Shown here in pieces: positions 31,902 through 64,000 of a stretch of DNA of 64,000 nt. How positions within the stretch are numbered: position 1 is the stretch's first letter; each line of letters starts with the position of its first letter. The translations under genes and the position numbers were made by a program. Below the pieces are notes generated by a model, which saw nothing but the letters and a program-made list of their open reading frames with translations, had not been told where the DNA came from and searched no databases. Source of the stretch: Cyanophora paradoxa CCMP329 (taxonomy: Eukaryota > Plantae > Glaucophyta); contig QPMI01000289.1 in NCBI GenBank assembly GCA_004431415.1, forward strand, positions 7,119-71,118. Direction: 5' to 3'.

Positions 31902-32183
31902 TGTCGGATGGGAGGATTCCCACCCGATTGGGCACCCGCGCAGTACTGCGCGGGGCCGGCTCCCTGTGCTGGAGCAGCTGTAGATGCAGGCTGGTGTATT
32001 CACTGTGTACCCGGAAGACTACTGACTCTGTACCCCTAAGACAGGTAGAGGCAGGCCAGCGTAGGCTACCGAGAGGTAAGCCTACAGGAAGAGAGACTAT
32101 GCTAAGCCACTCAGGCTACGTCAGGCACCAACTAGCTCTAGTCACTAAGTCACCGCAAGGCCAGGGAATCGAGCCAGGCGACA
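31902..32183 (-). repeat. LTR (3' LTR in element orientation)
   Basis: Identical to 43859-44141 except for one missing T; TG..CA termini. Confidence 0.95.
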
Positions 32184-43858: not shown

Positions 43859-44141
43859 TGTCGGATGGGAGGTATTCCCACCCGATTGGGCACCCGCGCA
43901 GTACTGCGCGGGGCCGGCTCCCTGTGCTGGAGCAGCTGTAGATGCAGGCTGGTGTATTCACTGTGTACCCGGAAGACTACTGACTCTGTACCCCTAAGAC
44001 AGGTAGAGGCAGGCCAGCGTAGGCTACCGAGAGGTAAGCCTACAGGAAGAGAGACTATGCTAAGCCACTCAGGCTACGTCAGGCACCAACTAGCTCTAGT
44101 CACTAAGTCACCGCAAGGCCAGGGAATCGAGCCAGGCGACA
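43859..44141 (-). repeat. LTR (5' LTR in element orientation)
   Basis: Direct repeat of 31902-32183. Confidence 0.95.
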
Positions 44142-45786: not shown

Positions 45787-48083
45787 TGGGCCCTCCTCAA
45801 ATAATAGTCGCGCCTAGGGCAACGTACCGAGGACCCCTGAGCCGCCACCGGACGCACGGGCTTGCGGATCTTCTCCGTCATCGGAGCGACCTGCGGACGC
45901 ATGTCATTTAGCAGCCGGGCGGGTACAGCACCCCCGCCGGCCGGCCATAAGAAAAATTAATTGAAAAATTCGAGATTTTTGCTTTGGAAAATGCACTCCA
46001 AAACATGATGGCTGAGAGGAGGGTACAGCAACAGTGGCGAACCTTGGGCGTCTGCAGGCTCCACCTCGGAAGCCGGCCTCGTCTGGGGCCTGCACGTGCG
46101 TGCCTCCTAGTATGAGCCACGCGTACGCTTGCGCTAGACGCTGTAGCTAGCTATAGCGATAGCGCTGGCATGGAGCAGGGTAATGGCTTGCAAATTGCTG
46201 CCGCACCTAGAGCTCGAGCTCGATACCGCGGCCGGTGCTCCTGCGCTGGCCGCCGGGCCCGGGGCGCCAGGCCGCCGCATGCGCAGTGTCTCAGGGTCTG
46301 TCGCCGGCGAGCGAGCAGCTCCAGCGCTAGCTATATATAGCTAGCTAGCCTAGCTATAGTAGCCTATAGCTAGTAGTGCCGGCAGCTGCGCATGCAGCGC
46401 TAGCTATAGCCTAGTAGCGCTCGCTCTCTAGCTATAGCGCTAGCTAGATCTAGCGTGCGCTAGCGTTAGCTAGCTGTCTGATCATGAAAGCTTGATGCAG
46501 CGCTATATATATACATAGCTAGCTAGCACCGTGGCACTATATATATATTGAAGGATCGGAGTAGTGCGCAAGCACCGCTTTATATTCTTTCAATTAAAAA
46601 CGCAGCAAAAATGTTTATGCATCCGTTCCCGGTTTTTTGTATGGGCCAGTTCGCAACATTATTGGGCAGCCGCCATAGTAAAAACCGGGAAAATTCCCGG
46701 TTTTTTTGGTAACAGGTTCGATTCCGAGTAAGCCAGTTTGACTTAGCGAATTCGAGCCGTTCTTGAGCTCGATACAGTCATCCTATCCATGGAGTCTACC
46801 TCCCACACCACACATCGATCTAGTCGACGTCTCTACGTCACCTTCGCACTAACCTGCGTACCTCTATCGAACTAGCCTGCCAGCTGAGAGTGCCGCGGAG
46901 CCTGCGCGCGGGGTGATCCTCAGAAAGGGCTGCTGCTGGGCGCAAGGAATTCGAAAGAGAGGGAGGCAGAGGCATCCGAGGGGCGCAGCAGGGCGCAGGG
47001 CGATGAGCTTCGGCTGGCGGCGGTCAGCACGACAAAGAGAAGCGAGGCAGGGGCGTGGTGCCCCCAGCAGCCTCTGCCCCAGGAGGCCCTGCACGGCCTG
47101 AGACGCCGGCGTGCCCTGCCAGGAGGAGGTGGGGGTCCGGGGGGGGGGGGGGGTCCGGGGGGGGAGGGAGAGGGCGGGGGAAGGGGGGAGGGGGGGGGCG
47201 CACGGCGGATCCGAGCACGGCGTAGGGACCAGGGCTGCGGGGGCCAGGGCCTGGACCGGAGAAGGGGCGGGCGTTGGGGAGGGCGGAGAGGGAGGGCGGG
47301 GCGTGGGGGCCCGTGGGGCGCCCGCGGTGGCGTGGCGTGCGGGCGTGGGGATAGTGAGCGCGCGTCGCGGGGCGGGGGCGTGAGCGTGCCGGCTGCCGTG
47401 CCCGGCCGCACCCCCGGCGGAGAAGGCGAGCGGCGCCGGCGCCGGGATCGCGATCGGAACGCCGGGTGGAGGGGTAGGGACGGCGGCGGCGCCCAGGCCG
47501 CTGCAGCGGCAGGGGCGGGGTTCGGGGCCGCCGGTGAGGAGGTAGGCGGGGTCGGGGGCGGGGCCCGAGAGAAGCGCAAGGGGTGCACCCGCCGGGGCAA
47601 GCGGGGGCGGGGCGCAGGGCGTACCCCTCGTAGCAGGCACATAGGGGTACCTGCACAACGAGGTTTGACGGGGTACGTGTTCACGATGAGGACCAACGGC
47701 GTGACGGGTGACGTGCTATGCCCAGCCGCGCCTTGGCTTGAGGACAGCCGATTCGGGCGTTATGCGAGGCTCCTCGCAACCGGGGCCCTTAATTTCCAAT
47801 AAAAGACTTGATAAAAGAATTTGATCGCCGAATTCTTTAAGGGTTTTTTGTAAGAGCCTTTCTCATGCTATGCAAGGACCTTAATTCCGCCAGTTAAGCG
47901 GTATTGCTAATATCATAAGCGTTCCGAAATGCAAGTAAAAATTAAGCAAGTCGCAGGGCGCGACTACGTTTTGAGGAGGGCCCAGACGCACTGATTCATA
48001 GCAAGCAGGCAGAGATAGCGAACCGTTATCTGCGGCTTTCAGTCAGCGTGTTCTACCTCGAGCGTGCAGCCGGCCGGCCAGCC
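45787..48083. mobile_element. Copy 2 (uninterrupted, 2297 bp) of the tandem non-autonomous element
   Basis: Head-to-tail with copies 1 and 3 through the junction GGCCAGCC|TGGGCCC. The right IR is at 47957-47985, followed by a tail of about 98 bp containing the hairpin AGATAGCG-AAC-CGTTATCT. Confidence 0.88.
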
Positions 48084-50752
48084 TGGGCCCTCCTCAAATA
48101 ATAGTCGCGCCTAGGGCAACGTACCGAGGACCCCTGAGCCGCCACCGGACGCACGGGCTTGCGGATCTTCTCCGTCATCGGAGCGACCTGCGGACGCATG
48201 TCATTTAGCAGCCGGGCGGGTACAGCACCCCCGCCGGCCGGCCATAAGAAAAATTAATTGAAAAATTCGAGATTTTTGCTTTGGAAAATGCACTCCAAAA
48301 CATGATGGCTGAGAGGAGGGTACAGCAACAGTGGCGAACCTTGGGCGTCTGCAGGCTCCACCTCGGAAGCCGGCCTCGTCTGGGGCCTGCACGTGCGTGC
48401 CTCCTAGTATGAGCCACGCGTACGCTTACGCTAGACGCTGTAGCTAGCTATAGCGATAGCGCTGGCATGGAGCAGGGTAATGGCTTGCAAATTGCTGCCG
48501 CACCTAGAGCTCGAGCTCGATACCGCGGCCGGTGCTCCTGCGCTGGCCGCCGGGCGCCAGGCCGCCGCAGGTTTAGTTTCTGCCGTCGCCATGAGGGGGC
48601 GAGGCGGGCGCCTCGGGCGTACGGGGACGTGGCGGGGGGGGGGGGGGGGGGGGGGGGGGGGACGGGGGGGGGCGGGGGGGGCGGGGGGGGCGGGGAGGGG
48701 GGGGGGGGCGGGGGCGGCGGCGGGGGTACGGGGACGTACCGTCGTCGGAGTTGGCGGGGGTCCACTCGTACCCCGCTAGAAGCGAGAAATAGGATCGCGG
48801 GGCCCGTCACCCCCACCACCTCAATCCGGCCTGCGAGGCGCGCCCCCCCCCCCCCCCCCGTGAGGGGGCGAGGCGGGCGCCTCGGTTGGGGCGGTGGGGG
48901 GTACGGGGACGTACCATCGCGTCGGAGTCGGCGGTGCTGCCCCCGCTAAGAGGCCGCCGGTCCGGGAGGGGCGGGGGCGGGGGCGGGGCGGGGGCGGACG
49001 GCGAGGTCGCGCTCGAGGCGGTGTGGTCGCGGGTGAGGCCGTCGTGCGACCGCGCCGCCTCCCCAGGGCCCCTTGGCCGCCCGCGCCTCCTTCTCGGCCG
49101 CCCGCAGCCGCCCCTCCAGCTCCTCCTTCTCCCGCCGAGCCCCATCCAGCTTCGTGATCAGCCCGGCCGCCTGCAGCTCCACGTCCCGCACCCGCCCCTC
49201 CGCCTCCCGCAGCTGCCCCTCCAGGCCCCGGTTGCGCGCCTCAACTTGGCAACGCCCTCCAGCGCTCGAGCGCGGGGCGCCGCGGGGGCGGGGCTAGCCG
49301 GGGATCCAGAGCTGGTGGCTGGCAAAGTAGGCCCGCTCCTCCTCCACTGACGGCACGCACACGCACCCGTCCACGTCCACCTGCCCCGCGCTCGCCGCCC
49401 GTGCCCGGGGCGGGTGGGGTGGGCAGGGCGGGGACGTACCGTCGTTGGGGTCGGCGGGGGCCCACTCGTACCGTCGTCAGGGTCGGCGGGGGGCGCCGCG
49501 GCTCCCGGCCCCCCAGCCGCTCCCGCACCGCCGCCACCGCCCGCCCCTGCTTCACCACCACCCCGCTCACCCGTGCCTGGCCAGCGGCGTGCCCGGCTCA
49601 GTTCAGAAAGCGTGCGGCGGGCGGCAGGCGGCGGGCAGGCGGGTGGGCGGGCGGACCGGCTCGGCCTCGAGGCGGGCGATGGCGGCCTCGGAGACGCGGG
49701 CGGCGGCGTCCACGCCCTCCACGCGCCCCGCGAGCGCCTCGAGCCGCGTCCGGTACGCCCCGCAAGATCTGTGGCCACGGATCAGCGAGGATCGCGCGGC
49801 GGCCGGGCAAGCAGGCCTCGGCGAGGATCGCGCGGCGGCAAGCAGCCGTCCGGGAGGAGCTCGTACCTAGTCCTCCGGAATTCATCGAGGATCGCGACCG
49901 TCGGACACCTGGCGCACTCGGCTGCAGGCCTGCAGGCCGGTGCACGCCTCGATGCACGCAAGATCTGTGGCCGCGGATCAGCGAGGATCGCGCGGCGGCC
50001 GGGCAAGCAGGCCTCGGCGAGGATCGCGCGGCGGCAAGCAGCCGTCCGGGAGGAGCTCGTACCTAGACCTCCGGAATCCATCGAGGATCGCGACGCCTGG
50101 CGCACTGCGGCACTCGGCTGCAGCTGCAGGCCTGCAGTTGCGCATGCTCGTCGCTCGGCGAATCGCTCGGTGGTTGCAGTCGCCGAGGCAAGTCGCTCGG
50201 CCTGCAGTTGCACTCGCAGAGGAAGTCGCGGAGGCGAATATACTGATACCCCCGGAGCCCAGCATAGTTAGGAAATCAACTTTTTAAGCGCCGATAGTGG
50301 TGCCGAGATCGGCGCCTAATTCCCGCAAGAAAAAAAGATCTGGCGCGCCTAACGATGAGGACCAACGGCGTGACGGGTGACGTGCTATGCCCAGCCGCGC
50401 CTTGGCTTGAGGACAGCCGATTCGGGCGTTATGCGAGGCTCCTCGCAACCGGGGCCCTTAATTTCCAATAAAAGACTTGATAAAAGAATTTGATCGCCGA
50501 ATTCTTTAAGGGTTTTTTGTAAGAGCCTTTCTCATGCTATGCAAGGACCTTAATTCCGCCAGTTAAGCGGTATTGCTAATATCATAAGCGTTCCGAAATG
50601 CAAGTAAAAATTAAGCAAGTCGCAGGGCGCGACTACGTTTTGAGGAGGGCCCAGACGCACTGATTCATAGCAAGCAGGCAGAGATAGCGAACCGTTATCT
50701 GCGGCTTTCAGTCAGCGTGTTCTACCTCGAGCGTGCAGCCGGCCGGCCAGCC
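48084..50752. mobile_element. Copy 3 (2669 bp) of the tandem element with a different interior
   Basis: Shares the first 485 bp or so and the last 400 bp or so (50352-50752, right IR 50626-50654) with copies 1 and 2. 48570-50350 is unrelated sequence that includes a direct duplication with a period of about 196 bp (49761-49898 / 49957-50094). Confidence 0.85.
48930..49760 (-). pseudogene. Host-like coiled-coil gene fragment(s) inside element copy 3
   Basis: Minus-strand frame ...REAEGRVRDVELQAAGLITKLDGARREKEELEGRLRAAEKEARAAKG... flanked by host-style GC-rich intron-like sequence. No complete gene is evident. Confidence 0.45.
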
Positions 50753-52063
50753 AGGTACCTAGCCTAGTTGCTTCCAGGCTACTAGTAGCGCTCGGACAGT
50801 CCGGACTCCCGGGAGTCCGGATCCGGAGTCCGGACTCCGGATCCGGATTCCGGATCTGGACGACTCCAGGATCCGGATTGGAATTGCGGATCCGGATCCA
50901 GCTGGCATGGATCATCCTGCAGCGCATGTGCATTCGAATTCGGAATTTCGAATTCGGCCCCGGCCCCCGGATCGTACACATGGACCGTATATATACACTG
51001 GTACTAGTACATGGCAGTATGTATTACATGCACATGTTAACGTTGGGGTGGGGCTTGCGCGCATGCGGTCAAGCCCTTAATCCAGTTGCAATTGCAAGGT
51101 AAGGCCTCAAGTCCGCGCCCCGCGCGCGGCTCACTAGCTATAGGTCAATTGCAAGCCCTTGCCCCGCAGGGCTCAAGCCCTTCACCACCCTATGCACATG
51201 CACATGTTTATCGATCATGACTCAGTGATCCCGATCATGATCATGCGCATGCACATGCTTATAAGAAGTTAAGGCTTGCGCAAGGCTTGACGTACGTGCA
51301 CCGTTAATTCGAAATCATTCTTTTTTCACACACGCAATTTACATGTATAGATGTTTTTTCACAAGTAATTAAGACATGAAATTAAGACATGTCAAAAGAT
51401 CATCGAAGAGATCTATATACGGAGCCCCGACTCTCGAAGAGTTTCGCGACCAATGTTTCTGCGTGTACGGTGTACCGTACGCGTGTACGGTACGGTGTAC
51501 GGCGCGGCGGCGTAACGGCGCCAACGGGGCTGCGGATTTCGCATACCCAGGTGACGGAAAAAAGCCCAAGCGACCGAGAGGCTACTCGGGCGAGCGGCGA
51601 GCGCGCGCTAAGCCTAGGAGATCGCCTCGGCGAGCATATCAGCTAGTTATAAGTTATAACTGCAGCCTGCCGCCGCCACGCGTACGGCTCGTCGGCGCCG
51701 GCACCGTACCGTACCGGCCAGCGCCGCGGTCCCCGCGGCGAGAGCAGCTGGCCTTCGCAAACTCGACTCTTCGACTCTTTGCGACCTTGGAGTTTCTAGG
51801 GATAGGCACTGACGCGCCGAGCCGACCTCGCGAAGTCAGCACGGCCTTGAGCTTCTTCGAATTCCCGAAGAATACGCTGGCGACGGGTCTCTCGCCGCCG
51901 AGTCGCCAGATAGTCGGCGGCAGCCGGTTCAGCCCAGCATCAAATTGGCACGTCTGATCGCGCATTAAGCACCGCGCGGGCGCCAGTCGCGCTGTGTCTC
52001 GGTTGCCCGCGGCCAGCGATGGACGCCAGCCTTGCGGCGGCTGCGGGTTTAGGCGACCGTAAC

Positions 52064-53289
52064 ATGCCGATCGAGCAAGGAGACGAGACACACATCGACG
52101 AGCGCGGAGCGCCGGTGCATCGAGCACCGCTGGCGCGTCCGAAGCTGGAGCGCTGCGCCTTCGTACTCCTGGACCGTGGGCGAAACTCCGGTGCGAGCCC
52201 CGTGGGGTCTCTGTGCCTGCAAACTCGCGCGTTTACGAAAACGCCGCGTGCGATGTCCTGTTCGGCAGGCTTCCAGCCGGCGGCGACGGCGGCGGAGGAG
52301 GAGGCGTGCCTGGCGTACCACATTATCTCGTACCGGCAGCTGAAGCTGCAGCCGCGGGACCCCGAGGAGGCGGCGCTCTGGGCCAACCGGAGCATCCGCG
52401 TCTCCCTCGCCTACGCAGGTGCGAGCGCAGCGCCGACCCCCCCCCCCCCCCCCCCCCCCCCGGCCGACGGAAGCCTGCAGACGACGGGAGCCCGGTACTG
52501 CACGGGAGCGGCGTGCAGAGCCGGATGGAGGAAGGGGCGGCGTGCACGGACCTGCCCCTCCGCCACTACTCCGCCCCGCGCCACTTCGAGCGCGCCGCCG
52601 CCGTGCGCGCCTTCGAGCGTCGGGCGCCTGCGTCCTTTTGACAGCGGGGCGCGCGCAGTGCACGATGCCGCTGGACGAGACCGGCACATCGCTCCACAGC
52701 TTCTCCATCATCGCCGCCTCCGTGCGCCCCGCCCCGCCCCGCCCCGCCTCCGTCGCGGGCGGCGCCTGACATGGCCGACGGTGTGCAGCACCGCCACGCG
52801 GGCCGAGTCTTCCAGCTCCACCTCGTCGACGCCGACTCGGGCGCTCCTGTTCCCGGCCGCATCCTCATCCACACGCGCTCGCACGGTGCGCCCGCCGCCC
52901 GCCCGCTTGCCGCCGCCCCCGCCGGGCGGCGAGCGGGCGCGCGGCTGCAGCCTCGTGCTCGCCGGGCATCGTGGAGCTGCTGCACAGGACGTCGATCGCC
53001 TTCGCGGCGGCGCACGGGGCGGCGCCGCGTGCGCGCGGGGAAGCGGCGCTGCGGCAAGGCCGGCCGGCATCGGCGCGTGCGGGCGCACTCCTTCTCCTCG
53101 GACTCCTCCAGCTCCTCCCGCTCGGACACCGACGCCGAGGCCGACGCCGAGGGCGAGGGCGGGGGCGAGGGCGAGGGCGGGGGCGAGGGCGAGGGCGGGG
53201 GCGAGGGCGACTCGGTGCGCGGCCCAGACCGCCGCCGTGGTGGGGGAGGCCTGACGCGGGGGAAGGGTGCAGAGGGGGCGGCGGCGGGG
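52064..53289 (+). CDS. Hypothetical multi-exon host gene truncated at the AT-rich element
   Basis: Exons MPIEQGDETHIDERG.., EEEACLAYHIISYRQLKLQPRDPEEAALWANRSIRVSLAYA, DDGSPVLHGSG.., CTMPLDETGTSLHSFSIIAAS, HRHAGRVFQLHLVDADSG..ILIHTRSH and an acidic S/E/G-rich exon, separated by GTGCG..CTGAC..GCAG introns. No stop was found on this spliced path before the junction. Confidence 0.55.
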
Positions 53290-53575
53290 CACACATAGTA
53301 AAATGCGGAGTTTTAACCCTCGGCTTAATCTTAATTGATTTTGTTGATATATCTCGTATATTCTATTTCAATCAATCGATAATCTGTGTATATCTTATCG
53401 AATATTCATTTATTTCGATTATTTTGTATTCTTTTCGATATTTTATCGTAAATTTCTCTTATTTTCCGATTAGTCTTACTGAGTCTATCGATAATCTGTA
53501 TATATTTCCGAATAATATAACTGAATCTCAATTAGATCTTGCCTCTGGTTAAAACTCCGCATTTTACTATGTGTG
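53290..53575. repeat. Terminal hairpin-like structure: perfect 29-bp inverted repeat enclosing a 228-bp imperfectly self-complementary spacer
   Basis: CACACATAGTAAAATGCGGAGTTTTAACC (53290-53318) and its exact reverse complement at 53547-53575. Confidence 0.92.
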
Positions 53576-53827
53576 ATTGGTCTAAAAGTTAATTGATTTA
53601 ATCGATATTATATTCATGTACTTTCTCGATTAAATTTAATTAAATTTAATTCATTTAATCGGAAATATATCGCTTAACTCGATTAAGATCCATAAATGAT
53701 TCATTTGTTTAATAAAACAAATAGATCTCTTATTGAATCCAATCGTAATTATACATGAAACTTATATGATTTTATCATTGTTTTATTGAGTCTAAGGGGG
53801 GACCCTTAGGATTTTTGAAATAATTGG

Positions 53828-54147
53828 GTGTCACAGGTGTCACAGGTCCATCCCAAACTTTTGAAAATTCACTCTTTATAGGAGAAACTTTGGGATAAAC
53901 CTGTGACACCTGTGACACATACCATATTTAGTAAGGATCTCTTTTATAATGAAAAACTCAGTAATAATCTTATCTATGTATTTCTAATTAAATGAATAAA
54001 TGATTTAATCGAGTGTCACAGGTGTCACAGGTCCATCCCAAACTTTTGAAAATTCACTCTTTATAGGAGAAACTTTGGGATAAACCTGTGACACCTGTGA
54101 CACATACCATATTCAGTAAGGACCTCTTATATTGTGAAAATCTCAGT
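53828..54147. repeat. Two direct copies (185-bp period) of a 91-bp palindromic unit built from GTGTCACAG iterons
   Basis: GTGTCACAGGTGTCACAGG-tcc-ATCCCAAA...TTTGGGAT-aaa-CCTGTGACACCTGTGACAC at 53828-53918 and 54013-54103; similarity continues for about 45 bp downstream. Confidence 0.92.
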
Positions 54148-54543
54148 GTTAGTTGGTGTAGTTGATTCAAAAAATGCATTTTATACTCTGATTCATTGTT
54201 ATTTCCTGTGAAATTTGAGTCAACTCAACCCACTTAGTCAACCCTTGCATTGAATTCGTAACAAAATCCATATACTATCGATTAATATGAGTCAACCTTG
54301 AGTCCACTTTAATATAAATATTATATAATAGGGGGAATCAAGGGGAATGTTGAGTTTTACTGTAATGAAATCGAATAGTATTCCAATTACTTACAATAGA
54401 ATTCTATCGTAAAAAATGTCCGGAATCCGGAAAATAAACATTGTAGAAAGCTACTGTAGGAAAAGGATATATTATATCTTTTTGTAACAGTTGCTATTGT
54501 AAAACAAAAGGTAAATTACCTTGATTATCATTATAGAAACCCA

Positions 54544-54942
54544 TCAAAACGGGAATCTATCATGTTTATGTCTCTCAGTCTTCTCAAATGTGAGGAAATT
54601 CATTGTTTTATCGATCTCATCTGCAACTGCTTGTGTTTTATGCTGAGCTTCTTTACCACAACTGAATATATCAATTGCTAACATGCCTTCATTGGAATAA
54701 CAATGAGCTGTGCAATGGCTTTCATCTAATAGCAGAACCAATGCAAAACCAGGAGGTGATACTTTGCCATCAAATATTTCACAATGTTTATGAACAATCC
54801 TAATACCTTGTCTCAATACTGCTTGTTCAAGGGTTCCCATAATCCAATTACCTAGGAAGCTAACATGCTCATAACCTGTTGCTATAGCTGATTTAGCCTT
54901 GTAATCAAGCATAACATGAAAGCCTCTGTATTTAGTCTCCAT
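54544..54942 (-). CDS. speD: Pyruvoyl-dependent S-adenosylmethionine decarboxylase-family proenzyme (prokaryotic short form)
   Basis: 132 aa; G.H..LD N-terminus, GFALVLLLDESHCTAH (E-S autocleavage site) and LAIDIFSCG match the SpeD/SpeH pattern LxESHxxxH..xxxDxFTCG. Confidence 0.85.
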   Translation of the reverse strand: METKYRGFHVMLDYKAKSAIATGYEHVSFLGNWIMGTLEQAVLRQGIRIVHKHCEIFDGKVSPPGFALVLLLDESHCTAHCYSNEGMLAIDIFSCGKEAQHKTQAVADEIDKTMNFLTFEKTERHKHDRFPF

Positions 54943-54971
54943 TAAGAATACCTTAGAAAAATTAATTACAC

Positions 54972-55244
54972 CTAATCGAACCTAATGCAAACATCCCTAT
55001 ATTCCACAGTGATTGATGAAGTAGCCCTTTTCCTATAAGCCTGAGAATGCTTTTTGTTGCATTCCCTACATCCTGATCCCTTCACATGATTAAATGGATA
55101 TGTAAGGATCACCTTATTACACTGCAAACATCTAACAGATACTTTCTCTTGAGCTTTGATGTAATGTGTCTCACTGTAATCGAATTTATCTTTACCATGG
55201 ACTGTCATAGCAGCATCAATAAACTTTTTTGTTTTACTATCCAT
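54972..55244 (-). CDS. Small Zn-ribbon protein, DUF723 / homing-endonuclease-associated type
   Basis: FIDAAMTVHGKDKFDYSETHY....KVSVRCLQC....TYPFNHVKGSGCREC matches the FI..A..vHG.kyDYS..Y.....V.I.C..h.....P.nHl.G.GC..C repeat of phage and giant-virus proteins. No nuclease domain is attached. Confidence 0.7.
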   Translation of the reverse strand: MDSKTKKFIDAAMTVHGKDKFDYSETHYIKAQEKVSVRCLQCNKVILTYPFNHVKGSGCRECNKKHSQAYRKRATSSITVEYRDVCIRFD

Positions 55245-55266
55245 ACTCTATATATAACCAATATTC

Positions 55267-56100
55267 TTATGGAGCAGTATCCTGCCCAAAAATGGGGAAA
55301 TATCGATTTGTCCCATAGTATTCAGCATAGGTATTCTGCTTTGCAATAAAATCGGTTCTCTCTGCAAACATCACACACTTGTAGATACCAAACTTGGTGG
55401 CTCTCACAAGAAACTGATAGTCTTCCAAACCGAAATTGACTCCATGATAAGCAATTCCGAAATTATCATATGGGGTGATCACAACTGCAAAGTTGGGAGT
55501 TCCACCTTCAACTTGGCAAACAGCATATACATCTGGTGGGATATCAACAACCACCTTGTAGTGATCACCAATCTCAACAAGAGAGTCAACTACTGCTGTT
55601 TGTTCATTCACAACAATGGGGAATATCTTGATTATATAGGGGGCATTCATGCTGGGGACATAGGTTCGAATTCTTGTGTTGGGATCAATAGGATTGGGTT
55701 GATCATTCACAAATAGAGGCGCTCCAACAGCCCCACCAACCCTAAGACCATCACCAATATAAGCTCCCCCCGATTTGCAGTTAATAGCTCCCGACCTAGA
55801 TTCAAAAGAATAAGTAGACAGAGGATCTCCATAGCTATCTGGGTCTCCATAATGAGCAGAAAAGTTTGCATTTGTGACAAGTAGCTTAGTTGTCTTAACT
55901 ATTCCATTATTTTTATCACATCTGAGTTCCTGTAATCTCAGCTTGTGGGTGGAACCAAATGTATTCATTGTAGGTTGGACCTCTGTGGATTGGAGACCTT
56001 CCACATCATCAAAGGTAGCATGCTGTAAAACATGGTTTGCTGGTGCAGCTAATGAAAGCTGAGGTGTAATAATTCGTTCAAGTGGGGGTTGCTCAGCCAT
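55267..56100 (-). CDS. Fibre paralog 1 (277 aa): shared N-terminal module + phage-fibre-type C-terminal domain
   Basis: LAAPANH..H..D..GLQSTE..F....LRLQELRCDKNNGIVKTTKLLVTN..KSGGAYIGDGLRV; C-terminus VDIPPDV..NFAVVITPYDNFG..Y..FLV..CVMFAERTD. Confidence 0.7.
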   Translation of the reverse strand: MAEQPPLERIITPQLSLAAPANHVLQHATFDDVEGLQSTEVQPTMNTFGSTHKLRLQELRCDKNNGIVKTTKLLVTNANFSAHYGDPDSYGDPLSTYSFESRSGAINCKSGGAYIGDGLRVGGAVGAPLFVNDQPNPIDPNTRIRTYVPSMNAPYIIKIFPIVVNEQTAVVDSLVEIGDHYKVVVDIPPDVYAVCQVEGGTPNFAVVITPYDNFGIAYHGVNFGLEDYQFLVRATKFGIYKCVMFAERTDFIAKQNTYAEYYGTNRYFPIFGQDTAP

Positions 56101-56123
56101 TTTACATTAAAGGGATATATCTT

Positions 56124-56978
56124 TTATGGGGTGGGGTCATCGATTATATCTGGTTCCGAATAAAATCCTGTTGTGAATATATCAGCAACATTTACACCAC
56201 GAAGTGCTGATACAGCTGCTATATCTGTTCTCAGTCCCATAATCATAGTATTGTATACTCCCACCTCAGTGACAAACAGATCATAGGTAAATGTCAAATT
56301 GTTATAAACACAATATCCTCTGCCAAAATGGTTCGAAGCTTGAACAAAGAATAAGTAGTTGTGACCTGGTTGATTATTATTGGCTCTACACATGGAAAGC
56401 ATTGAAGTGGGAAGAGGAATATTTCTTCTTACTCGATCAGTTCCTGTAATGGAAACTAATTCCGAATTCTCAAGAGTTACAGAGGATGCAACATAGAAAT
56501 GCAAAAAAGGTTGCTGTGCAACAGGTGTGTAGAAACGAATTCGTTGTGGGTTCTCAGCATTTTGCTCTAGAGTATCTGGGACATCATTATACGAAATTGA
56601 GGATGAAAGTTGACCTGAAACTCTGCAGCCACCACCAATAAAAGCTCCTCCTGATCTCACAGTTACAGCAGCAGTGTTTTTATCATAATCAAGGGCTTTC
56701 AGATCAACACTGTAAGCATCTGGACCCCCATTAGTAGGTTGGAAGAAATTAGCATTAGTTACAAGGAGTCGAGTTGTTTTCACCACACCAGAATTCTTAT
56801 CAGCTCTCAGCTCTTTAACTCGAATAATCGAATTTTTGTCAAATGAGTTACCATTGGAATTGGGTCTCTCTGTGGATTCTAATCCACGAACCTCATCATT
56901 TACTTCATGCTGGCGAAAATGCATTGCAGGGGATCCAAGGGAATATATAGGCAGTTGAACTCGATTATATTCACCCAT
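56124..56978 (-). CDS. Fibre paralog 2 (284 aa from MGEYNRV)
   Basis: Same N-terminal module (IRVKELRADKNSGVVKTTRLLVTN; RSGGAFIGGGCRV). The C-terminus is related to paralog 1 (IPLP..FFVQASNHFGRGY..MIMGLRTD). Start placed at 56978 by alignment with the paralogs. Confidence 0.7.
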   Translation of the reverse strand: MGEYNRVQLPIYSLGSPAMHFRQHEVNDEVRGLESTERPNSNGNSFDKNSIIRVKELRADKNSGVVKTTRLLVTNANFFQPTNGGPDAYSVDLKALDYDKNTAAVTVRSGGAFIGGGCRVSGQLSSSISYNDVPDTLEQNAENPQRIRFYTPVAQQPFLHFYVASSVTLENSELVSITGTDRVRRNIPLPTSMLSMCRANNNQPGHNYLFFVQASNHFGRGYCVYNNLTFTYDLFVTEVGVYNTMIMGLRTDIAAVSALRGVNVADIFTTGFYSEPDIIDDPTP

Positions 56979-57013
56979 TGCTTCTTTTACTAAGAAGGAA
57001 AGAAAAATAATGT

Positions 57014-57280
57014 TCATTGTTCTTCTGTGATAATATTATATTCGATCGCTTTTTTCACAGTCCCCCTTTGGAATGCCTGTAAAACAATAGCTTCCTTTGA
57101 GGTTGGTATTTGGATACCAGCTGAGATGCAAGACTGTATCTCTTTCTGAACAATCTCATCAACAGCAATTCTGGCTCTGTTGTGGGCTGCATTGTCAATC
57201 CAATCCTGAACAGAAGCAGAGCAGTATTCCATTCCTAAATTTTCAGTATCTGTGAGGACTACTTGGTAGATATTCGACAT
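57014..57280 (-). CDS. 88-aa phage-type protein, putative fibre-associated or assembly factor
   Basis: Y.V.LTDTE...MEY......DWI.NAA.NRARIA.DEIV resembles small proteins I recall encoded next to C1q-like fibres in marine tailed phages (recognition from memory, not searched). Confidence 0.55.
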   Translation of the reverse strand: MSNIYQVVLTDTENLGMEYCSASVQDWIDNAAHNRARIAVDEIVQKEIQSCISAGIQIPTSKEAIVLQAFQRGTVKKAIEYNIITEEQ

Positions 57281-57301
57281 TCCTATTGTATGGTGAGAAA
57301 A

Positions 57302-58324
57302 TTAAACTATACTAATTAATTCACCTGAAAATCCTGTTTGGCTTGCATATGTAGCAACTGTATTTGTCACAAGGGTCACATATTCATTCACAGCAAGATT
57401 TAGAATGCAAGAGAAACTTAGAGGTTTATTTGTTAAGGTGCTGTTGTGGATCTGGGATATACTTAGACCCCCAGGATCTGCTCCATTCACTCTCAAAAAT
57501 AATTCGATAGGAGATGCTGTGGTTGAATATGAGAACACAGAAAAACGATAGTGTCCTGTAACAGGTGCTGTAAACCTTCCTGTTGATACACTGAATGAGT
57601 TTGTTGTGTTTATTCTGACTGTTGCCCAATTAATAAGAACAGCAGAGCTTGAGGCTGTGTGATTATATCCAAGTTGAACAGAAAACCTTGGCTGTGATAT
57701 TTGCTTGAGATAGCAGCCTGTGTTGAGTGTCAAACTATTGGATTCAAGTGAAGCAATGGTATAACTGTTGCGTTTTAGAAGTAGATTGACATCAGCCCCT
57801 GTATCAACCTCAGGTGTGATTATTTTGGTTGTAGCTGTGATAATAGACTGTGAAGCATTGGGTATTGAAACTCCTGCATTTGCAGTCACTAATCCAGTGA
57901 AAGTACTTGCTCCTGTTATACTTACCTGAGTTGCTGTAAGAGTTCCATCAACCCTTGCCCCATCTCCAATGTAAGCCCCTCCACTCTTGACAACAAGAGC
58001 TGAATTATTGCTTGTGTTGTCAAAATTTACTAGCTTTTGTGTGGTGAAACCACCCACATCATCATATATTGCGGAATCAGAAACAATCTGACCTGATTGG
58101 ACTTGGTTTTTATTCGAAACAATAAGACCTGTGGTTCTTACCCTACCTCCATTTCTATCACATCTTATTTCTTTGCATCTAATGACTGAGTTCTGAGAGA
58201 ATGAATCTGCCCCTGTAGTTTCTGTGCAAATAAACCCTGGTGTGGCATCTGACACAGCATGGTTCAATTGATGTAATTTGGGTGCAGCATAACAGAAAAC
58301 AGGAACTGCTATTTGAGTGGTCAT
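57302..58324 (-). CDS. Fibre paralog 3 (340 aa) with C-terminal C1q/TNF-like domain
   Basis: N-module IRCKEIRCDRNGGRVRTTGLIVSN, NSALVVKSGGAYIGDGARV; C1q signature PRFSV..INW..V.IN..NSFSVSTGRFTAPVTGHYRFS...LNLAVNEYVTL...FSGELI. Confidence 0.8.
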   Translation of the reverse strand: MTTQIAVPVFCYAAPKLHQLNHAVSDATPGFICTETTGADSFSQNSVIRCKEIRCDRNGGRVRTTGLIVSNKNQVQSGQIVSDSAIYDDVGGFTTQKLVNFDNTSNNSALVVKSGGAYIGDGARVDGTLTATQVSITGASTFTGLVTANAGVSIPNASQSIITATTKIITPEVDTGADVNLLLKRNSYTIASLESNSLTLNTGCYLKQISQPRFSVQLGYNHTASSSAVLINWATVRINTTNSFSVSTGRFTAPVTGHYRFSVFSYSTTASPIELFLRVNGADPGGLSISQIHNSTLTNKPLSFSCILNLAVNEYVTLVTNTVATYASQTGFSGELISIV

Positions 58325-58346
58325 TCTTTACATTATACTGACAAAA

Positions 58347-59420
58347 TTATGAGGAATCAATGAGCATGCATCCAAAAAAGAACCTGACATTCAAACCAGT
58401 TGCTCCAGTTACTGGGTTAGCATAGAGTTTGATGGAGTCATTAGCTATAAGGTTTACAACAGTTTCGAAACCGCTATTCGAATAAGATGATATATTTTGG
58501 GTAAAAGAATCAATTGTGGTGATTGTTCCATTTATTTGCAGAGATACTCTGCATGGATTGGTTTTACCTGTATTGGTTGCCCCATGATATAACACATGAT
58601 AGTTTCCTGATACAGGGGCTGTAAAACTTCCTGTTTCAGGGGCAAAATTGTTTCCATGATTGACTGTGACCCCAGTTGATAAGAATGTAACAACACCTGG
58701 CAGCATGGTAAAGTATGCATTAATATCTCCATTTGGTGCTTGCTTAGTTACAAAGAAACGAGGATGGCTATCTACTTTAAGATATTTACCTGTCAGAAAT
58801 GATATAGATCTTATTATGGTATTATTTGTTTGGGTTGTTTCTTCAAGACTAAACATATTACTACCATTTCTTTTATAGTTCATGTTTGCATTAGTCCCAT
58901 TGTCTATTTCAAGTGTTTGACCTCTTACAGTTGCTGTGAGAATTCCATACTGAATAGCTCCTGAAAGCCCACCATTGAGTGTCATCAAACCTGTAAATGA
59001 ACTTGTCCCACTCACATTTAATTGATTTGCTGTGACAGTGCCAACAACATTTGCCCCATCACCAATGTAGGCTCCTCCACTCTTGACAAGAAGAGCTGAA
59101 TTATTACTTGTGTTATTGAAAGTAACTATCTGTGCTGTGGTAAATCCACCTACATTATCATATACTGCTGAATCTGGGACAACTTGACCTGCTTGAACCT
59201 GATTTTTGTTCGAGATAATAATCCCTGTGGTTCTTATCTTGCCTCCATTTCGATCACATCGAATTTCTTTGACTCTGAGAATATTATTCTCTGTGAAAGA
59301 GGTATTACTTGAAGTTTCAGTGCAAATATTTCCGGGTGTTGAATCGAAGACTTCATGGGAGGTGCTATGCAGTGATTTGGCTGCAAGTTCATAGTTTGGG
59401 ATCTCTAAAAGAGAGGTCAT
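58347..59420 (-). CDS. Fibre paralog 4 (357 aa from MTSLLEIP) with C-terminal C1q/TNF-like domain
   Basis: N-module LRVKEIRCDRNGGKIRTTGIIISN, NSALLVKSGGAYIGDGANV; C1q signature NHGNNFAPETGSFTAPVSGNYHV..VNLIANDSIKL..FFGCMLI. Start set at 59420 because the upstream in-frame ATG overlaps the previous gene. Confidence 0.8.
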   Translation of the reverse strand: MTSLLEIPNYELAAKSLHSTSHEVFDSTPGNICTETSSNTSFTENNILRVKEIRCDRNGGKIRTTGIIISNKNQVQAGQVVPDSAVYDNVGGFTTAQIVTFNNTSNNSALLVKSGGAYIGDGANVVGTVTANQLNVSGTSSFTGLMTLNGGLSGAIQYGILTATVRGQTLEIDNGTNANMNYKRNGSNMFSLEETTQTNNTIIRSISFLTGKYLKVDSHPRFFVTKQAPNGDINAYFTMLPGVVTFLSTGVTVNHGNNFAPETGSFTAPVSGNYHVLYHGATNTGKTNPCRVSLQINGTITTIDSFTQNISSYSNSGFETVVNLIANDSIKLYANPVTGATGLNVRFFFGCMLIDSS

Positions 59421-59439
59421 CTTTATAATAAAGAAATAG

Positions 59440-62400
59440 TTAAATTGCGACAGCAGTGTAATGAATTGTAACTGGAAATCCTGGTCTGTCAAAAGAACTT
59501 AATGGAACTATGTCAAGCTCACAAGTGAAATAGCTACTGTAAACTTGTTTAAGCCTAACATACATTCGGTAGTAGTAGGCTGTCTCATTGTGTTGTATAC
59601 CGGTTGTTACAATAGGAGGGTTAGCAAAGCTGCTGTTGAAATTAATAGTGAGGTTAAACCTATGGTCAGGGTTTGCCCAAAGATAAGGAGTAGTGTAAAC
59701 ATACGTTCCTGCTTGAATTTTCCCATTAAAGTATGCATTTAGTTGACTGGATAGATCGGCTTCTGTAATACATCTACTGATAGTCTGATTATTGGAAGGG
59801 TTCATAGCATAGAAATTTCTTGCATAAGCATTTCCACGAACAAGTAAAGTTTGATCAAAGTAATTCTGCGAATTGTGGAAAAACCATGTTTCATCAAACA
59901 TAGGTCCTGCTGGTTCTACTATCTGACCCGATCCTACATACATTGTGTTGTTGGCTCTTATGGTGGTAGCTGTGAATGGATCCAGAGTAGGTCGATCTGT
60001 TATATCTCCCCAAAGGTGGGTGTGTGCGAAATCTGTAATTTGGGATTTTGTATGAGTATGAGCAAAGTCTGTAATTTCACCTTTGGTGTGAGTGTGAGCA
60101 AAATCTGTAATCTCACTCTTGACATGAGTGTGTGCAAAATCTGTAATCTCACTCTTGACATGAGTGTGTGCAAAATCTGTAATCTGTGACTTTGTGTGAG
60201 TGTGTGCGAAATCTGTGATTTCAGATTTAAAATGAGTGTGAGCGAAATTCGTAATATCTGCTCTTGTGTGGGTGTGTGCAAAATCTGTTATCTGGGATTT
60301 TGTGTGAGTGTGTGCGAAATCTGTGATCTCTGCTCTTGTGTGGGTGTGTGATCTATTATTAAGATCAAGGAAGCTTCCCGAAAAGGCAACAGGATGCAGA
60401 TTTGCAGCAGTAGGTTTATTTATGAGATCATTATAGTCTCCTGTAAATGAAATGGTTTTCAGTTCACCCCTTCCTACATAATCAGAAGGGAGATCGATTT
60501 TAATTGGCATAATAGCTGGATCATCAGGTATCTCATACTCACCTCCTGGATGTACAACTGGGAATGTTTGATTGCTTTCAGTATGAACAAAGAAGTTGCA
60601 TGCTGTTACTGTTCCATCAATTATCCCACCTGTGAGAGGGAGGTAATTGCCTGTGACTCCTATACCTGCAATGATTGTATTTAGTTCTGTTTCATCTATA
60701 TAGTTCTGGGCTTGAAGGTAATCCTCTGTCACCACTCTTGATATGGTCTCATTGTGAATATTCTTTGCTGCTGCCCTCTGATTAATTTCTAAAACTCCCT
60801 CACCCACTCCACCATTATAATTCGTTTTTATCCATGCCATCTCACATCTCTTGTAGTCATCTCGATGTCCTAAAAGAGCATCAGGTAACAGTCTCTCCCT
60901 GCTGAATATTAATTTTGGTCTTGAACCATCCAAATCACTCACATCAGTAACATTAATTTGGATTGCTGCATCTTTGTCATCATAGTTGACTGGATCAGAT
61001 GGTAGAGATATTAATCCTCCTGTCATTGGGATGTCATCAGCATAGTAACTGGTTAAATAGATACCTGGTTTGGTGTCCAATGCTCCGAAATTTCCACCTG
61101 CTGCAATCATCTGCATTCTTGTAGGGGGTCTAATGTATAATTCACCTTCCATAGTAGTGCCTGCATCAATACCCTTTCGATTGACATAATAATCATTTAG
61201 TTGTAGCCTCTCAGGTATGGTATTACTCTGGTAAAGACTCACACCATGTGGGAAGTCTGTTAGCAGGTTGCCTGCAGATGCAAATTTGGGTTGCTGGTCA
61301 ATTTCACTCCAAGGGTGTCTGTGATTACAGTTGGTGATCTGGGTATAATCATGAGTGTGAGTATCAGGAGGGAAGGTGATAGGTTTGTCCACAATATTCG
61401 ACCAGGCATGTGTGTGATCATCTGGGGGGAAAGTCAATGGTCTGTCCACAATATTTGACCAGGCATGTGTGTGATCAAAGTCTACAATTTGGTCTTTGGT
61501 GTGTGTATGGTTTTCAATCCACCCTATCACAACATTTGAAGTTGGATGATGTGGAAGGTTTGCATTAGATGTAACAGTAAGATAATCAACAGTTATATTA
61601 CTTGCATGAAGGTTACTTGTGTAAAGGTTACTGGTGACAGTTAGGTCCCCTGTGATTGTTCCACCAGTTTTAAGAAGATACTTTGATAATTCAAGAGCAA
61701 GTTCATTTTTCGTTACATAATTTGCAAGCATAGCAAGGGTGACTATATTCACAAGAACAACAGCAGTAAGGTAATCCTCTGTGACCACTCTCGAAATATT
61801 TTCGTTGTGTATGTTTTTTGCAGCCATCCTCTGATTGGATTCCAGAACCCCACCATAATCTGTTTTAATCCATGCAAGCTCTGCCCTCCCATAGTTATCA
61901 TTTGCAGTTCCCACTATGGGAATATACGAATATTTATCTCTGCTGAATACTATCATTGGTCTTGAGCCATCTAAACTGCTTACATCTGCTACATGAACCT
62001 GTATAGCAGAGTTGTAATTTTGGTAGGTTGCTGGGTCTGTTGGGACTCTGAATGTATCTGTGGGAATGTCAGCCTCCATGTAGCTTGACACAAAGATATT
62101 TGGTATGGTTGCTCCTGGTGGTGGTGGGGTTTCAAAAGAGCCTGGTAATGTCCTAATATGAAGTGGTCCTCTCATAGCTGAATTTGCAAGTGTCCCATTC
62201 ACATGTACATAGTGTTCATTCAAAAAAATCCTTTCAGGGACATTGCAAGTCTGGTAAAGAGAAACCCCCAAGTTATCAAGAGGCTCTACCTTTGCAAATT
62301 CTGGTTGGTTATTGATCTCATCCCAAGTGTGTTCATGGTTGCTTGCTGCAAACTTATCTGGAATCCCATCAATTTCTCCCCAATCATGCCTGTGATCCTC

Positions 62401-63222
62401 TGGTGGATACTTTTGAGGTTTGCCTAAGATCTCATCCCAATCATGATTGTGATCCTCTGGGGGATACTTTGCAGGTTTATTATTAATTTGTTCATAATCA
62501 GGAAAGAACTCCCACATCTCAGGTCGAAATCCATCTGGTAATAGTTCCTCATGGGGTTCATAAGGTTGCTCATAATCAACAGCTGGTGGATCATGCCCAT
62601 CTGGCAAATACTCCTCATCAGGTTCATAGTTCTGCTCATACTCAAACTCTTGTGGATCTAAGCCATCTGGTAGTATCTCCTCCTCATTGGGATCAAACTG
62701 ATCATATTCATATTCTTGTGGGTCAAAACCATCTGGTAAATACTCTTCCTCATCTGGAACGAATTGATATTCATCAAGCTCTAATATATCGACTTCAGGA
62801 GGTAAATACTGCTCATCTATTTGCTTTCTGGGTTCAATTATAGGTTTATTGCGAACTTGCTCCCAACTCACAATATGCTGCCCAAAGGCTACATCTTCAG
62901 TTGCTGTGTACTCTCTGCCTGGTTGCTTTTTCGGTGTTAAATCCGGTGGATCCCATGGAAGAGGGAAGGGAACTGGGACAGGTCCATAATACTCAAAGAT
63001 CTCTCTTATGGTCTTCTCACTTACAAGCTTCTCACCATTTGCATACACATTGCTGCCATGGATATTTCGCCATTGCCTGGTTCGAATTCCAAGGTCTTTC
63101 ACATTGCTATACAAAGGCAAAAGGTGCCTATCCATTTCGACTAAATCAGGATGTAAATGGATTGCTACTGGTTGACTGGGGCTACTGTTGATTTGTAATT
63201 GATGGCTTTTTTTGATGGACAT
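59440..63222 (-). CDS. Large fibre/adhesin-like protein (at least 1260 aa) with acidic repeats, a duplicated internal domain, His-x-His repeats and an H-type-lectin-like tip
   Basis: Repeats of about 21 aa (EEYLPDGxDP); H.H.W.EI..KP repeats; two copies of GVSLYQ..PER..DVSxLDGSRP..AWIKT..AAKNIHNE.ISRVVTEDYL; YLxxTGG.I.G motifs; 10 x HTHTKSQITDFA-like; C-terminal INFNSSFANPPIVTTGI. The true start may be upstream at 63751 (frameshifted). Confidence 0.8.
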   Translation of the reverse strand: MSIKKSHQLQINSSPSQPVAIHLHPDLVEMDRHLLPLYSNVKDLGIRTRQWRNIHGSNVYANGEKLVSEKTIREIFEYYGPVPVPFPLPWDPPDLTPKKQPGREYTATEDVAFGQHIVSWEQVRNKPIIEPRKQIDEQYLPPEVDILELDEYQFVPDEEEYLPDGFDPQEYEYDQFDPNEEEILPDGLDPQEFEYEQNYEPDEEYLPDGHDPPAVDYEQPYEPHEELLPDGFRPEMWEFFPDYEQINNKPAKYPPEDHNHDWDEILGKPQKYPPEDHRHDWGEIDGIPDKFAASNHEHTWDEINNQPEFAKVEPLDNLGVSLYQTCNVPERIFLNEHYVHVNGTLANSAMRGPLHIRTLPGSFETPPPPGATIPNIFVSSYMEADIPTDTFRVPTDPATYQNYNSAIQVHVADVSSLDGSRPMIVFSRDKYSYIPIVGTANDNYGRAELAWIKTDYGGVLESNQRMAAKNIHNENISRVVTEDYLTAVVLVNIVTLAMLANYVTKNELALELSKYLLKTGGTITGDLTVTSNLYTSNLHASNITVDYLTVTSNANLPHHPTSNVVIGWIENHTHTKDQIVDFDHTHAWSNIVDRPLTFPPDDHTHAWSNIVDKPITFPPDTHTHDYTQITNCNHRHPWSEIDQQPKFASAGNLLTDFPHGVSLYQSNTIPERLQLNDYYVNRKGIDAGTTMEGELYIRPPTRMQMIAAGGNFGALDTKPGIYLTSYYADDIPMTGGLISLPSDPVNYDDKDAAIQINVTDVSDLDGSRPKLIFSRERLLPDALLGHRDDYKRCEMAWIKTNYNGGVGEGVLEINQRAAAKNIHNETISRVVTEDYLQAQNYIDETELNTIIAGIGVTGNYLPLTGGIIDGTVTACNFFVHTESNQTFPVVHPGGEYEIPDDPAIMPIKIDLPSDYVGRGELKTISFTGDYNDLINKPTAANLHPVAFSGSFLDLNNRSHTHTRAEITDFAHTHTKSQITDFAHTHTRADITNFAHTHFKSEITDFAHTHTKSQITDFAHTHVKSEITDFAHTHVKSEITDFAHTHTKGEITDFAHTHTKSQITDFAHTHLWGDITDRPTLDPFTATTIRANNTMYVGSGQIVEPAGPMFDETWFFHNSQNYFDQTLLVRGNAYARNFYAMNPSNNQTISRCITEADLSSQLNAYFNGKIQAGTYVYTTPYLWANPDHRFNLTINFNSSFANPPIVTTGIQHNETAYYYRMYVRLKQVYSSYFTCELDIVPLSSFDRPGFPVTIHYTAVAI
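59992..60348 (-). repeat. 36-bp coding tandem repeat (about 10 copies, HTHxKSxITDFA)
   Basis: Visible in both DNA and protein. Confidence 0.9.
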
Positions 63223-63751
63223 CTTTGGAGTAAAGAACCCAAAAGGCTCATTCCTTGCAAAGTCATAATGTAATATCCTTGGGTAGACATCATTTGTGTA
63301 GGAGACCTGATTTGTGTTGGCAATGGACCCACTTGCAATACTTGGGGGACCTCAGCTTTTGCAGTGCTGCCCTCATTGTAAATTCGCAAAGCTTGTTCTG
63401 TTTGCCTGCTCATCTGAAATTGAAAATCAATCGACACTATCGAACCTGGAAGGTATATCTGGGTGAGTGCCACTGGTTTTCAGTTTCCTAGGTCTCCTTC
63501 TGGGGCTTTGATCTCTGCCACTTGGTTTGCTTTCACATACTCAAACTAAAAGCAACACTGATCCTCTTTATCTGGATCGGTTTGATTCACAGATAAACAT
63601 GCTGCCCTTGATTGAGTCTTGGATGAATTAATCGGAACTGTGGTCAATTGAACTGAACCTTTACTTTAATATATCAAAAGTTCACATGCTTGGTGCTGCT
63701 TGCATTATCATCTTGAATGGTTTCTAGATTTGGTGGGTAATTGAAGCTCAT
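63223..63751 (-). pseudogene. Frameshifted reading frame, probably the real N-terminus of the large fibre gene
   Basis: ATG at 63751 (MSFNYPPNLETIQDDNASSTKHVNF) is preceded by the same TAGTAAAAG motif as other genes of the element. Coding-like frames continue toward 63222 with several 1-nt shifts. Confidence 0.45.
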
Positions 63752-63795
63752 GGCTTTTACTATATGGATTTATATAAATTCCTGATAAGTAAAAG

Positions 63796-64000
63796 ATGCC
63801 TCAGAAATCGTTTTAGCATTGTCAGGGGGAGGTGCAAGGGGCATTATCATAACCAGGCTGCTAAAAGAAATCGAAAATCGAACTGGCAGAGAATAATCGA
63901 TCTTGTGGATCTTGTAAGTGGAACTTTCCACTGGTGGGATCATTGCAATAGGTTTGAATTAGCATCTCTGATAAACCAGGTGAACCTAAACTGACAGCAA
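63796..64000 (+). pseudogene. Patatin-like phospholipase, 5' part, frameshifted as assembled
   Basis: Joining frames gives MPQK-IVLALSGGGARGIIITRLLKEIENRTG-IIDLVDLVSGT-STGGIIAIGL, which contains the GGGxRG oxyanion loop and the GTSTG nucleophile motif. At least three 1-nt indels are needed. Confidence 0.75.

Follow-up and report, generated by a model that had tools for sequence, protein, structure and literature searches.

An AT-rich, multicopy element with phage-type fiber genes in the Cyanophora paradoxa genome: very probably an endogenous Polinton-like virus

The DNA analyzed here, called the window, is a 64,000-nucleotide (nt) stretch from Cyanophora paradoxa CCMP329, and all coordinates refer to it. 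Its last 10.7 kb, 53291 to 64000, are the left part of an AT-rich element that adjoins GC-rich host DNA. The best likelihood change point lay at 53290, with a GC content of 0.688 before it (1 to 53290) and 0.384 after it (53291 to 64000), which bears out the base-sharp switch described in an earlier reading of the sequence alone (the sequence-only reading). The host value, 68.8%, compares with 67.6% published for C. paradoxa (PMC6704402); here and below, papers are cited for the portions of their text and tables that were available to us. The features of the element and its border are as follows.

53181 to 53316, no strand: host-element junction, covered by a single 136-nt contig (110 host plus 26 element bases)
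53290 to 53575, no strand: outermost 286-nt palindrome, with perfect 29-nt arms (53290 to 53318 and 53547 to 53575) and weaker pairing inward
53291 to 54543, no strand: noncoding terminal region, 1,253 nt without a convincing open reading frame (ORF)
53816 to 54147, no strand: pair of 147-nt direct repeats (93% identity), in each of which a 91-nt hairpin with 34-nt arms can form
54544 to 54942, minus: AdoMetDC homologue of 132 amino acids (aa), small prokaryote type (class 1b-like), Pfam PF02675 at 44 bits
54972 to 55244, minus: four-cysteine domain protein, 90 aa, PHROGs 4605/681/559 at E values of about 1e-8 to 2e-9
55267 to 56100, minus: 277-aa protein, shared N-terminal domain plus unassigned C-terminal domain (from alignment)
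56124 to 57017, minus: 297-aa paralogue of the 277-aa gene (284 aa if it starts at 56978; from alignment)
57014 to 57280, minus: 88-aa phage-type partner gene, directly behind a C1q fiber gene
57302 to 58324, minus: 340-aa fiber, shared N-terminal domain plus C1q tip (C1q at 37 bits)
58347 to 59420, minus: 357-aa fiber, shared N-terminal domain plus C1q tip (C1q at 30 bits)
59440 to 63222, minus: 1,260-aa modular fiber with acidic repeats, a duplicated domain, phage tail repeats and a C-terminal H-lectin
63192 to 63925, no strand: stretch dense in single-base differences from high-depth contigs; the best 12 of 69 indels all fall here
63789 to 64000, plus: N-terminal fragment, likely of a patatin-like phospholipase, PF01734 at 13.5 to 14.2 bits (E value, 0.085 to 0.05), frameshifted and cut by the window end

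The eight minus-strand ORFs are open and cover 8,508 of the 8,679 nt (98%) between 54544 and 63222, with spacers of 19 to 35 nt. The sequence-only reading had described a fiber block of about 8.5 kb. Fiber-type genes are indeed present, but the block measures about 8.0 kb (55267 to 63222), and only three of its six ORFs carry a recognized fiber domain; two more share an N-terminal domain, and one is the small partner gene. This shared domain, of about 125 aa, is common to four paralogues (277, 297, 340 and 357 aa), two of which end in C1q (Pfam cut-off, 23.7 bits). The 277-aa protein has a 62%-identical homologue on a contig in ENA; its structure model had a mean pLDDT of 41, and fold searches returned low TM-scores and nothing at a Z of at least 5, so that no fold is claimed. 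Its 297-aa paralogue had no Pfam or PHROG match. In the 1,260-aa fiber, the phage tail repeats comprise about ten 12-aa units at 59998 to 60357, and a domain of about 175 aa occurs twice (60703 to 61260 and 61783 to 62295; 47% identical). This duplicated domain had no Pfam family and no detected homologue, its Atlas leads were at most 0.90 with low recognition, and its structure model had a pLDDT of 28. When shorter proteins were searched with the whole fiber, matches spanned 7 to 13% of it, and those that were mapped fell on the tail repeats. The true start of this gene may lie upstream, behind frameshifts. The array thus holds phage-like modular fiber genes (PTR, H-lectin and C1q), which are typical of Polinton-like viruses (PLVs) without defining them.

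The AdoMetDC homologue, named as such by the sequence-only reading, scored 44 bits against a Pfam cut-off of 25, kept the self-cleavage ESH motif and a downstream Cys, aligned to solved AdoMetDC proenzymes and had 10 homologues at 42 to 60% identity. Its substrate assignment rests on sequence, and viral homologues of this kind may be true AdoMetDCs or arginine or ornithine decarboxylases (PMC9992855). The 90-aa protein has a four-cysteine domain, a type known from phage endonucleases, with matches in 46 phage records; no nuclease domain was detected in it. Eight homologues of the 88-aa protein were found at 48 to 56% identity, and in both distinct phages matched, the homologue directly follows a C1q-tipped gene, the same order as here. 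In these phages, Synechococcus phage S-SRM01 and Limnohabitans phage DC33, the homologue is 42 to 48% identical, whereas the fiber of the element begins with an N-terminal domain unlike theirs and is encoded in a eukaryotic chromosome. This gene order suggests that the 88-aa protein is likely a fiber assembly or cap protein. Searches with the AdoMetDC and 88-aa proteins gave no match above 60% identity, and the AT-rich copies therefore seem to be missing from protein collections.

The window was compared with sequencing runs, of which 20 contain part of 51500 to 61400. Fourteen of the 20 contain 61 to 64% of the words of that interval; all 14 date from 2024 and carry the label of organism A, and they may represent one strain and one campaign. 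Contigs from seven of 24 listed runs (X1, X7, X9, X14, X15, X16 and X17) were aligned to the window. The RNA origin of X15, X16 and X17 is no more than a guess, and no conclusion on expression is drawn from them. The 136-nt junction contig was found in both DNA runs examined over the junction, X1 and X9, with 0 differences and at depths of 106.5 and 57, compared with flank depths of 90.1 and 63.7. Its halt after 26 element bases is what a repeat boundary would produce. At the same end, three X15 contigs with other flanks match from 53290 (one contig) or 53291 (two contigs) onward, and an X17 contig begins at 53291; the terminus is therefore most likely 53291. These results agree with the proposal that 53290 marks the left end of an integrated element of virus type: it lies in the chromosome with a sharp GC contrast, short-read contigs cross 53290 in X1 and X9, and the same terminus stands next to other flanks. 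No empty allele was seen in the contigs of the runs examined. Three joints near 53291 or 53272 were considered as empty alleles and rejected, as their sides of 21 to 23 letters were repeat matches. X17 is a 2017 run under the label of organism B; over 53291 to 54250 it contains, at low depth, the same terminus and a 184-nt piece with 0 differences, and its source may be a close relative or this very species, differently labeled.

The junction also bears on whether the contig is chimeric or the AT-rich part is a contaminating tailed phage, a reading to which the phage homologues of the fiber repeats, the 88-aa gene and the four-cysteine domain lend some color. It is contradicted by the junction contig in two of two DNA runs and by the copy-specific parts of the element, which occur at host-level depth with 0 differences in three of three runs. 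In addition, none of 153 pattern matches to the shared domain in bacterial genomes was confirmed as a relative, and the whole C1q fiber gene had no match among 50,697 phage records. The sequence-only reading had itself named phage contamination as a way to be wrong; that possibility is largely refuted, and we consider it hardly credible.

The terminal region is hairpin rich, as the sequence-only reading had noted of this 1.25-kb end. The 286-nt palindrome folds with a z score of -9.1, and none of 200 shuffles was equally stable; its inner 202 nt are weakly self-complementary, with a score reached in 2 of 1,000 shuffles. The direct-repeat hairpin folds with a z score of -8.6, again with none of 200 shuffles equally stable, and each arm of the 91-nt hairpins carries two 9-nt repeats. 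The hairpins and 9-nt repeats are candidate origin or protein-binding sites. The number of hairpin units varies: one X16 contig has a single unit, skipping 53816 to 54005, and X1 and X9 show a three-repeat variant. Loose contig ends at 54141 to 54346 mark points where other contigs diverge, and they fit either the inner border of a terminal repeat of about 1 kb or the existence of subfamilies. The region, at the one end of the element that lies in the window, is a probable terminal inverted repeat of about 1 kb; in endogenous Polinton-like viruses such repeats measure 100 bp to several kb, in elements 14 to 40 kb long. Flipping of the 286-nt palindrome, or its movement on its own as a miniature inverted-repeat transposable element, found no support: among the matches listed, none was a joint with a change of strand, and none of the loose ends lay at 53575. 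Rfam microRNA matches to the hairpins reached 25 to 39 bits against gathering thresholds of 75 to 86 and reflect hairpin shape only. The terminal motif had 0 matches in the viral contig collection; pattern scans of contig and genome collections, here and below, detect close relatives only and do not prove absence. Strict Maverick/Polinton elements combine pPolB with an rve integrase and have ends that begin 5'-AG. The terminus here reads ACAC and does not fit that motif.

Copy number was estimated as the ratio of the depth of the contig at 63324 to that of a single-copy flank contig in the same run, a rough, order-of-magnitude measure. The depth at 63324, in one contig per run, was 10210 (X1), 11243 (X7) and 5488 (X14), compared with flank depths of 110.6, 110 and 60.6, giving ratios of 92, 102 and 91. 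Shared parts of the element are thus present in roughly a hundred copies, to an order of magnitude, and the other copies that the sequence-only reading proposed to look for are visible as about 90 to 100 times single-copy depth in all three DNA runs. Since the ratio is constant over runs, it fits chromosomal copies rather than free replication. Depth in these three runs and the X15 flanks show many copies with a precise common terminus at different sites. Many aligned contigs are only 88 to 99% alike, indicating that the copies have diverged.

The C1q tips behaved differently. In X1, X7 and X14 alike, a single contig spans 57258 to 57940, which contains the first tip, and another spans 58295 to 59019/59030, which contains the second; both have single-copy depth and 0 differences. 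Over the second tip, the X1 bin had a depth of 82, whereas the next bin, over the N-terminal domain of the same gene, had a depth of about 9,750. The C1q tips are therefore this copy's own or common to few copies, and their single-copy depth and lack of differences indicate that this exact copy is present in the X1, X7 and X14 genomes.

The fragment at 63789 to 64000 keeps an intact glycine-rich motif and a serine motif split by an indel; the patatin named by the sequence-only reading is thus recognizable by motif and PF01734 match, but weakly. The dense indels at 63192 to 63925 are probably consensus errors of the assembly, because single-base indels against a single-copy host contig also occur in host DNA (53015 and 53036). 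Artifacts of this kind have been described (PMC10120064, section 7). As contigs drop rare variants, genuine decay of this copy is a possible alternative.

In a rival reading, the element is a nonautonomous or capsid-less derivative, consisting of ends and accessory genes and mobilized in trans. This reading accounts for the frameshifts and for the lack of a core gene in 10.7 kb, and the standard Polinton capsid model was matched in only 2 of 156 glaucophyte elements (PMC12220804). It sits poorly with eight ORFs open over 8.7 kb, with indels that look like consensus errors and with the fact that the glaucophyte elements were found through divergent capsid genes (PMC10120064); moreover, fibers make sense only with a capsid. 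We therefore consider it improbable.

Among the 156 glaucophyte endogenous viruses tabulated in PMC12220804 (Table S6), 139 have an A32 ATPase, 89 lipases, 85 rve, 66 AdoMet_dc, 49 pPolB and 40 D5, while tyrosine recombinase was recorded in 0 and a standard Polinton capsid in 2. The only PTR-PTR-H-lectin fiber reported there belongs to a PLV of C. paradoxa; rhizarian and glaucophyte PLVs are said to encode discoidin, either by itself or in fusion with patatin. Among 21 rows of Table S6, only three others, all cryptophyte, have AdoMet_dc, which is absent from the main text. The C. paradoxa and Glaucocystophyceae PLVs resemble the element in AdoMetDC, lipase or patatin, PTR and H-lectin fiber and many copies; its C1q tips, terminal hairpins and tip variation are undescribed there, and "C1q" occurs 0 times in the text and supplements of PMC12220804. 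In C. paradoxa, 366 capsid genes fall into clusters of 272 and 94, labeled new (PMC10120064), which are numbers 20 and 28 by column count in Table S4 of that paper. By HHpred, the listed members of these clusters come closest to capsids of giant viruses, among them ascoviruses and iridoviruses. The same table estimates the family likely to contain the element at 7% of the C. paradoxa assembly. Adintovirus-like proteins have also been reported in C. paradoxa contigs (PMC8502044). Literature searches, in which subscription papers were outside the scope, found supplementary tables and single sentences and no paper devoted to glaucophyte elements; the main text of two 2026 preprints does not mention Cyanophora.

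Taken together, these findings make it very probable that the AT-rich element, with its many diverged copies, is an endogenous PLV of C. paradoxa or a close relative, and likely that its family has already been counted in this species without being described. The defining genes lie outside the window, so that membership rests on accessory genes and sister homologues. The idea that the gene set fits no known element is not supported, since AdoMetDC, lipases including patatin and a PTR-H-lectin fiber are on record (PMC12220804). A known PLV family, which the sequence-only reading had named as a refuting outcome, is largely what gene content and sister homologues, rather than a capsid gene, indicate. 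What survives of the proposed undescribed lineage is a weaker form: unnamed clusters of giant-virus-like capsids that lack a dedicated description in the literature searched.

Several observations weigh against this assignment. No capsid, ATPase, polymerase or integrase gene lies within the 10.7 kb in the window; a Pfam and PHROGs scan of nine ORFs found no match to an A32-type ATPase or a minor capsid protein. The C. paradoxa homologues of the shared domain are only about 30 to 39% identical over it and represent a sister family rather than this element. AdoMet_dc is present in cryptophyte PLVs (45 of 706, 10 of 177 and 17 of 57 elements; PMC12220804) and therefore does not single out glaucophytes. 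The patatin score lies below the Pfam cut-off of 27.7 bits. The junction contig's 26 element bases fall short of the 31 bases required for a formal bridge, and the junction was seen in short-read contigs, with no long read. Finally, the DNA runs could all stem from a single strain and campaign, and depth is a coarse proxy for copy number.

The sister homologues came from a profile of the shared N-terminal domain, which matched seven proteins among 1.84 billion. Only three of the seven are named; they come from C. paradoxa gene models, and their clusters have 1, 5 and 10 members. A C1q tip was found in three of the seven, in one of them (a C. paradoxa model) below the cut-off. Many C. paradoxa gene models, annotated as genes of the host, represent a second, divergent family with the same fiber N-terminal domain, which may belong to the other capsid cluster. 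Pattern scans confirmed no longer related contig in viral contigs, metagenome contigs or bacterial and archaeal genomes.

The giant-virus-like capsids raise the question of whether the window instead shows one terminus of an endogenous giant virus (Nucleocytoviricota) far larger than a PLV. Poxvirus-type genomes end in AT-rich, imperfectly paired hairpins, and the terminus described here resembles them. Small AdoMetDCs are also known from Algavirales (PMC9992855), and the HHpred matches of the endogenous C. paradoxa capsids fit as well (PMC10120064). Set against this, about a hundred dispersed copies of 100 kb or more with one terminus hardly fit runs with 93 to 124 million contig letters, and the gene content agrees with that of the PLV-type elements on record from glaucophytes (PMC12220804). 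We regard a giant-virus insertion as very unlikely, and the endogenous PLV as the preferred reading.

Two other sets of small viruses invite comparison. The cryptophyte (Rhodomonas lacustris and Cryptomonas) and Gezel-14T-type PLVs resemble the element in mass expansion within host genomes, GC contrast and phage-like modular fibers, and a minority of the cryptophyte elements also have AdoMet_dc. Unlike it, these groups carry standard Polinton-type capsids, SLATT and S74 chaperones, for which the glaucophyte row gives 2, 0 and 37 of 156 (PMC12220804); a Pfam scan found no S74 or SLATT domain in the element stretch. The mriyaviruses and the Zora, VC218 and Zephyr groups (bioRxiv 10.64898/2026.06.19.733378) are PLV-sized with capsids like those of nucleocytoplasmic large DNA viruses (NCLDVs), and some have an rve integrase or a lipase. 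The C. paradoxa capsids, like those of mriyavirus or Zora type, best match NCLDV capsids. The markers of those groups are Mriya48, an HUH endonuclease and VLTF2/3, genes that would lie outside the window here, and the available preprint text names neither Cyanophora nor glaucophytes.

From these features, a life cycle can be proposed in which every protein function is predicted from sequence. The linear genome would be inserted, end first into the chromosome at both termini, by an rve-type integrase whose gene lies beyond the window; rve is proposed since the published glaucophyte elements encode it but never a tyrosine recombinase. Its sites of action, or else the origins of replication, could be the hairpins and 9-nt repeats of the terminus. 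After reactivation, virion fibers would come from the densely packed minus-strand genes, presumably late ones: the four paralogues would attach to the capsid by their common N-terminal domain and to the cell surface by exchangeable tips, the H-lectin tip would also bind the surface, and the 88-aa protein would help C1q fiber assembly. Patatin may help membrane entry, as PMC12220804 suggests, and the AdoMetDC homologue may raise the polyamine supply.

The element also differs from the host in CpG content. The observed/expected ratio was 0.24 in the coding part (54544 to 63222), 0.91 in the terminal region and 1.12 in the host. Of 79 surviving CpGs, 70 have T before or A after, and TCG or CGA contexts prevail at every codon position (TCG 17 versus CCG 3, ACG 4 and GCG 2). 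Confinement of the survivors to Arg codons was rejected, as they spread 26/26/27 over codon positions. This context-specific loss may reflect host methylation by a context-specific methyltransferase.

The published C. paradoxa genome has 67.6% GC, many short introns and about 100 Mb, and the available text of that paper does not use the word "virus" (PMC6704402). A GC-rich open frame at 52771 to 53290, with Ser/Asp and Gly-Glu repeats, ends three codons inside the element, so that a host exon may have been split by the insertion at 53290. On the minus strand, 114 to 1334 encodes the catalytic part of a host adenylate/guanylate cyclase in exons separated by short, GC-rich introns (Pfam PF00211, 77.5 bits). 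An inverted duplication, 9170 to 17386 and 18508 to 26609 (82% identical over 6.2 kb and 95% over 2.1 kb), has a spacer of about 1.1 kb and contains a WD40-type gene fragment. A unit of about 2.3 kb occurs in two tandem copies (99% identical) at 44141 to 48569, with partial near-identical copies 13 kb upstream and 2 kb downstream (31244 to 32183, 43859 to 44141 and 50352 to 50755); it is possibly a long-terminal-repeat-like or satellite repeat bracketing 32 to 44 kb.

Integrated small DNA viruses are common in protists, and the existence of the element is no surprise. New here are the copy-specific, possibly swappable tips, the phage-type C1q-fiber gene pair and the nested terminal hairpins. 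The pairing of a C1q fiber with the 88-aa gene, shared with freshwater phages, indicates that a fiber module has passed as a unit between phages and a eukaryotic virus. Because the anchors are conserved and the tips differ from copy to copy, tip exchange is directly testable over about a hundred copies. We tentatively suggest, as a possibility well short of an even chance, that the element belongs to a still-active glaucophyte virus lineage of PLV size that combines nested hairpins at its ends, a polyamine enzyme and a capsid like that of giant viruses. Its roughly one hundred chromosomal copies would then amount to a stock of receptor-binding C1q tips, derived from phages and interchangeable on an anchor domain peculiar to the lineage. 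If this is true and the virus is inducible, glaucophytes would gain a virus that can be cultivated, and the connection of PLVs with Nucleocytoviricota would become open to experiment.

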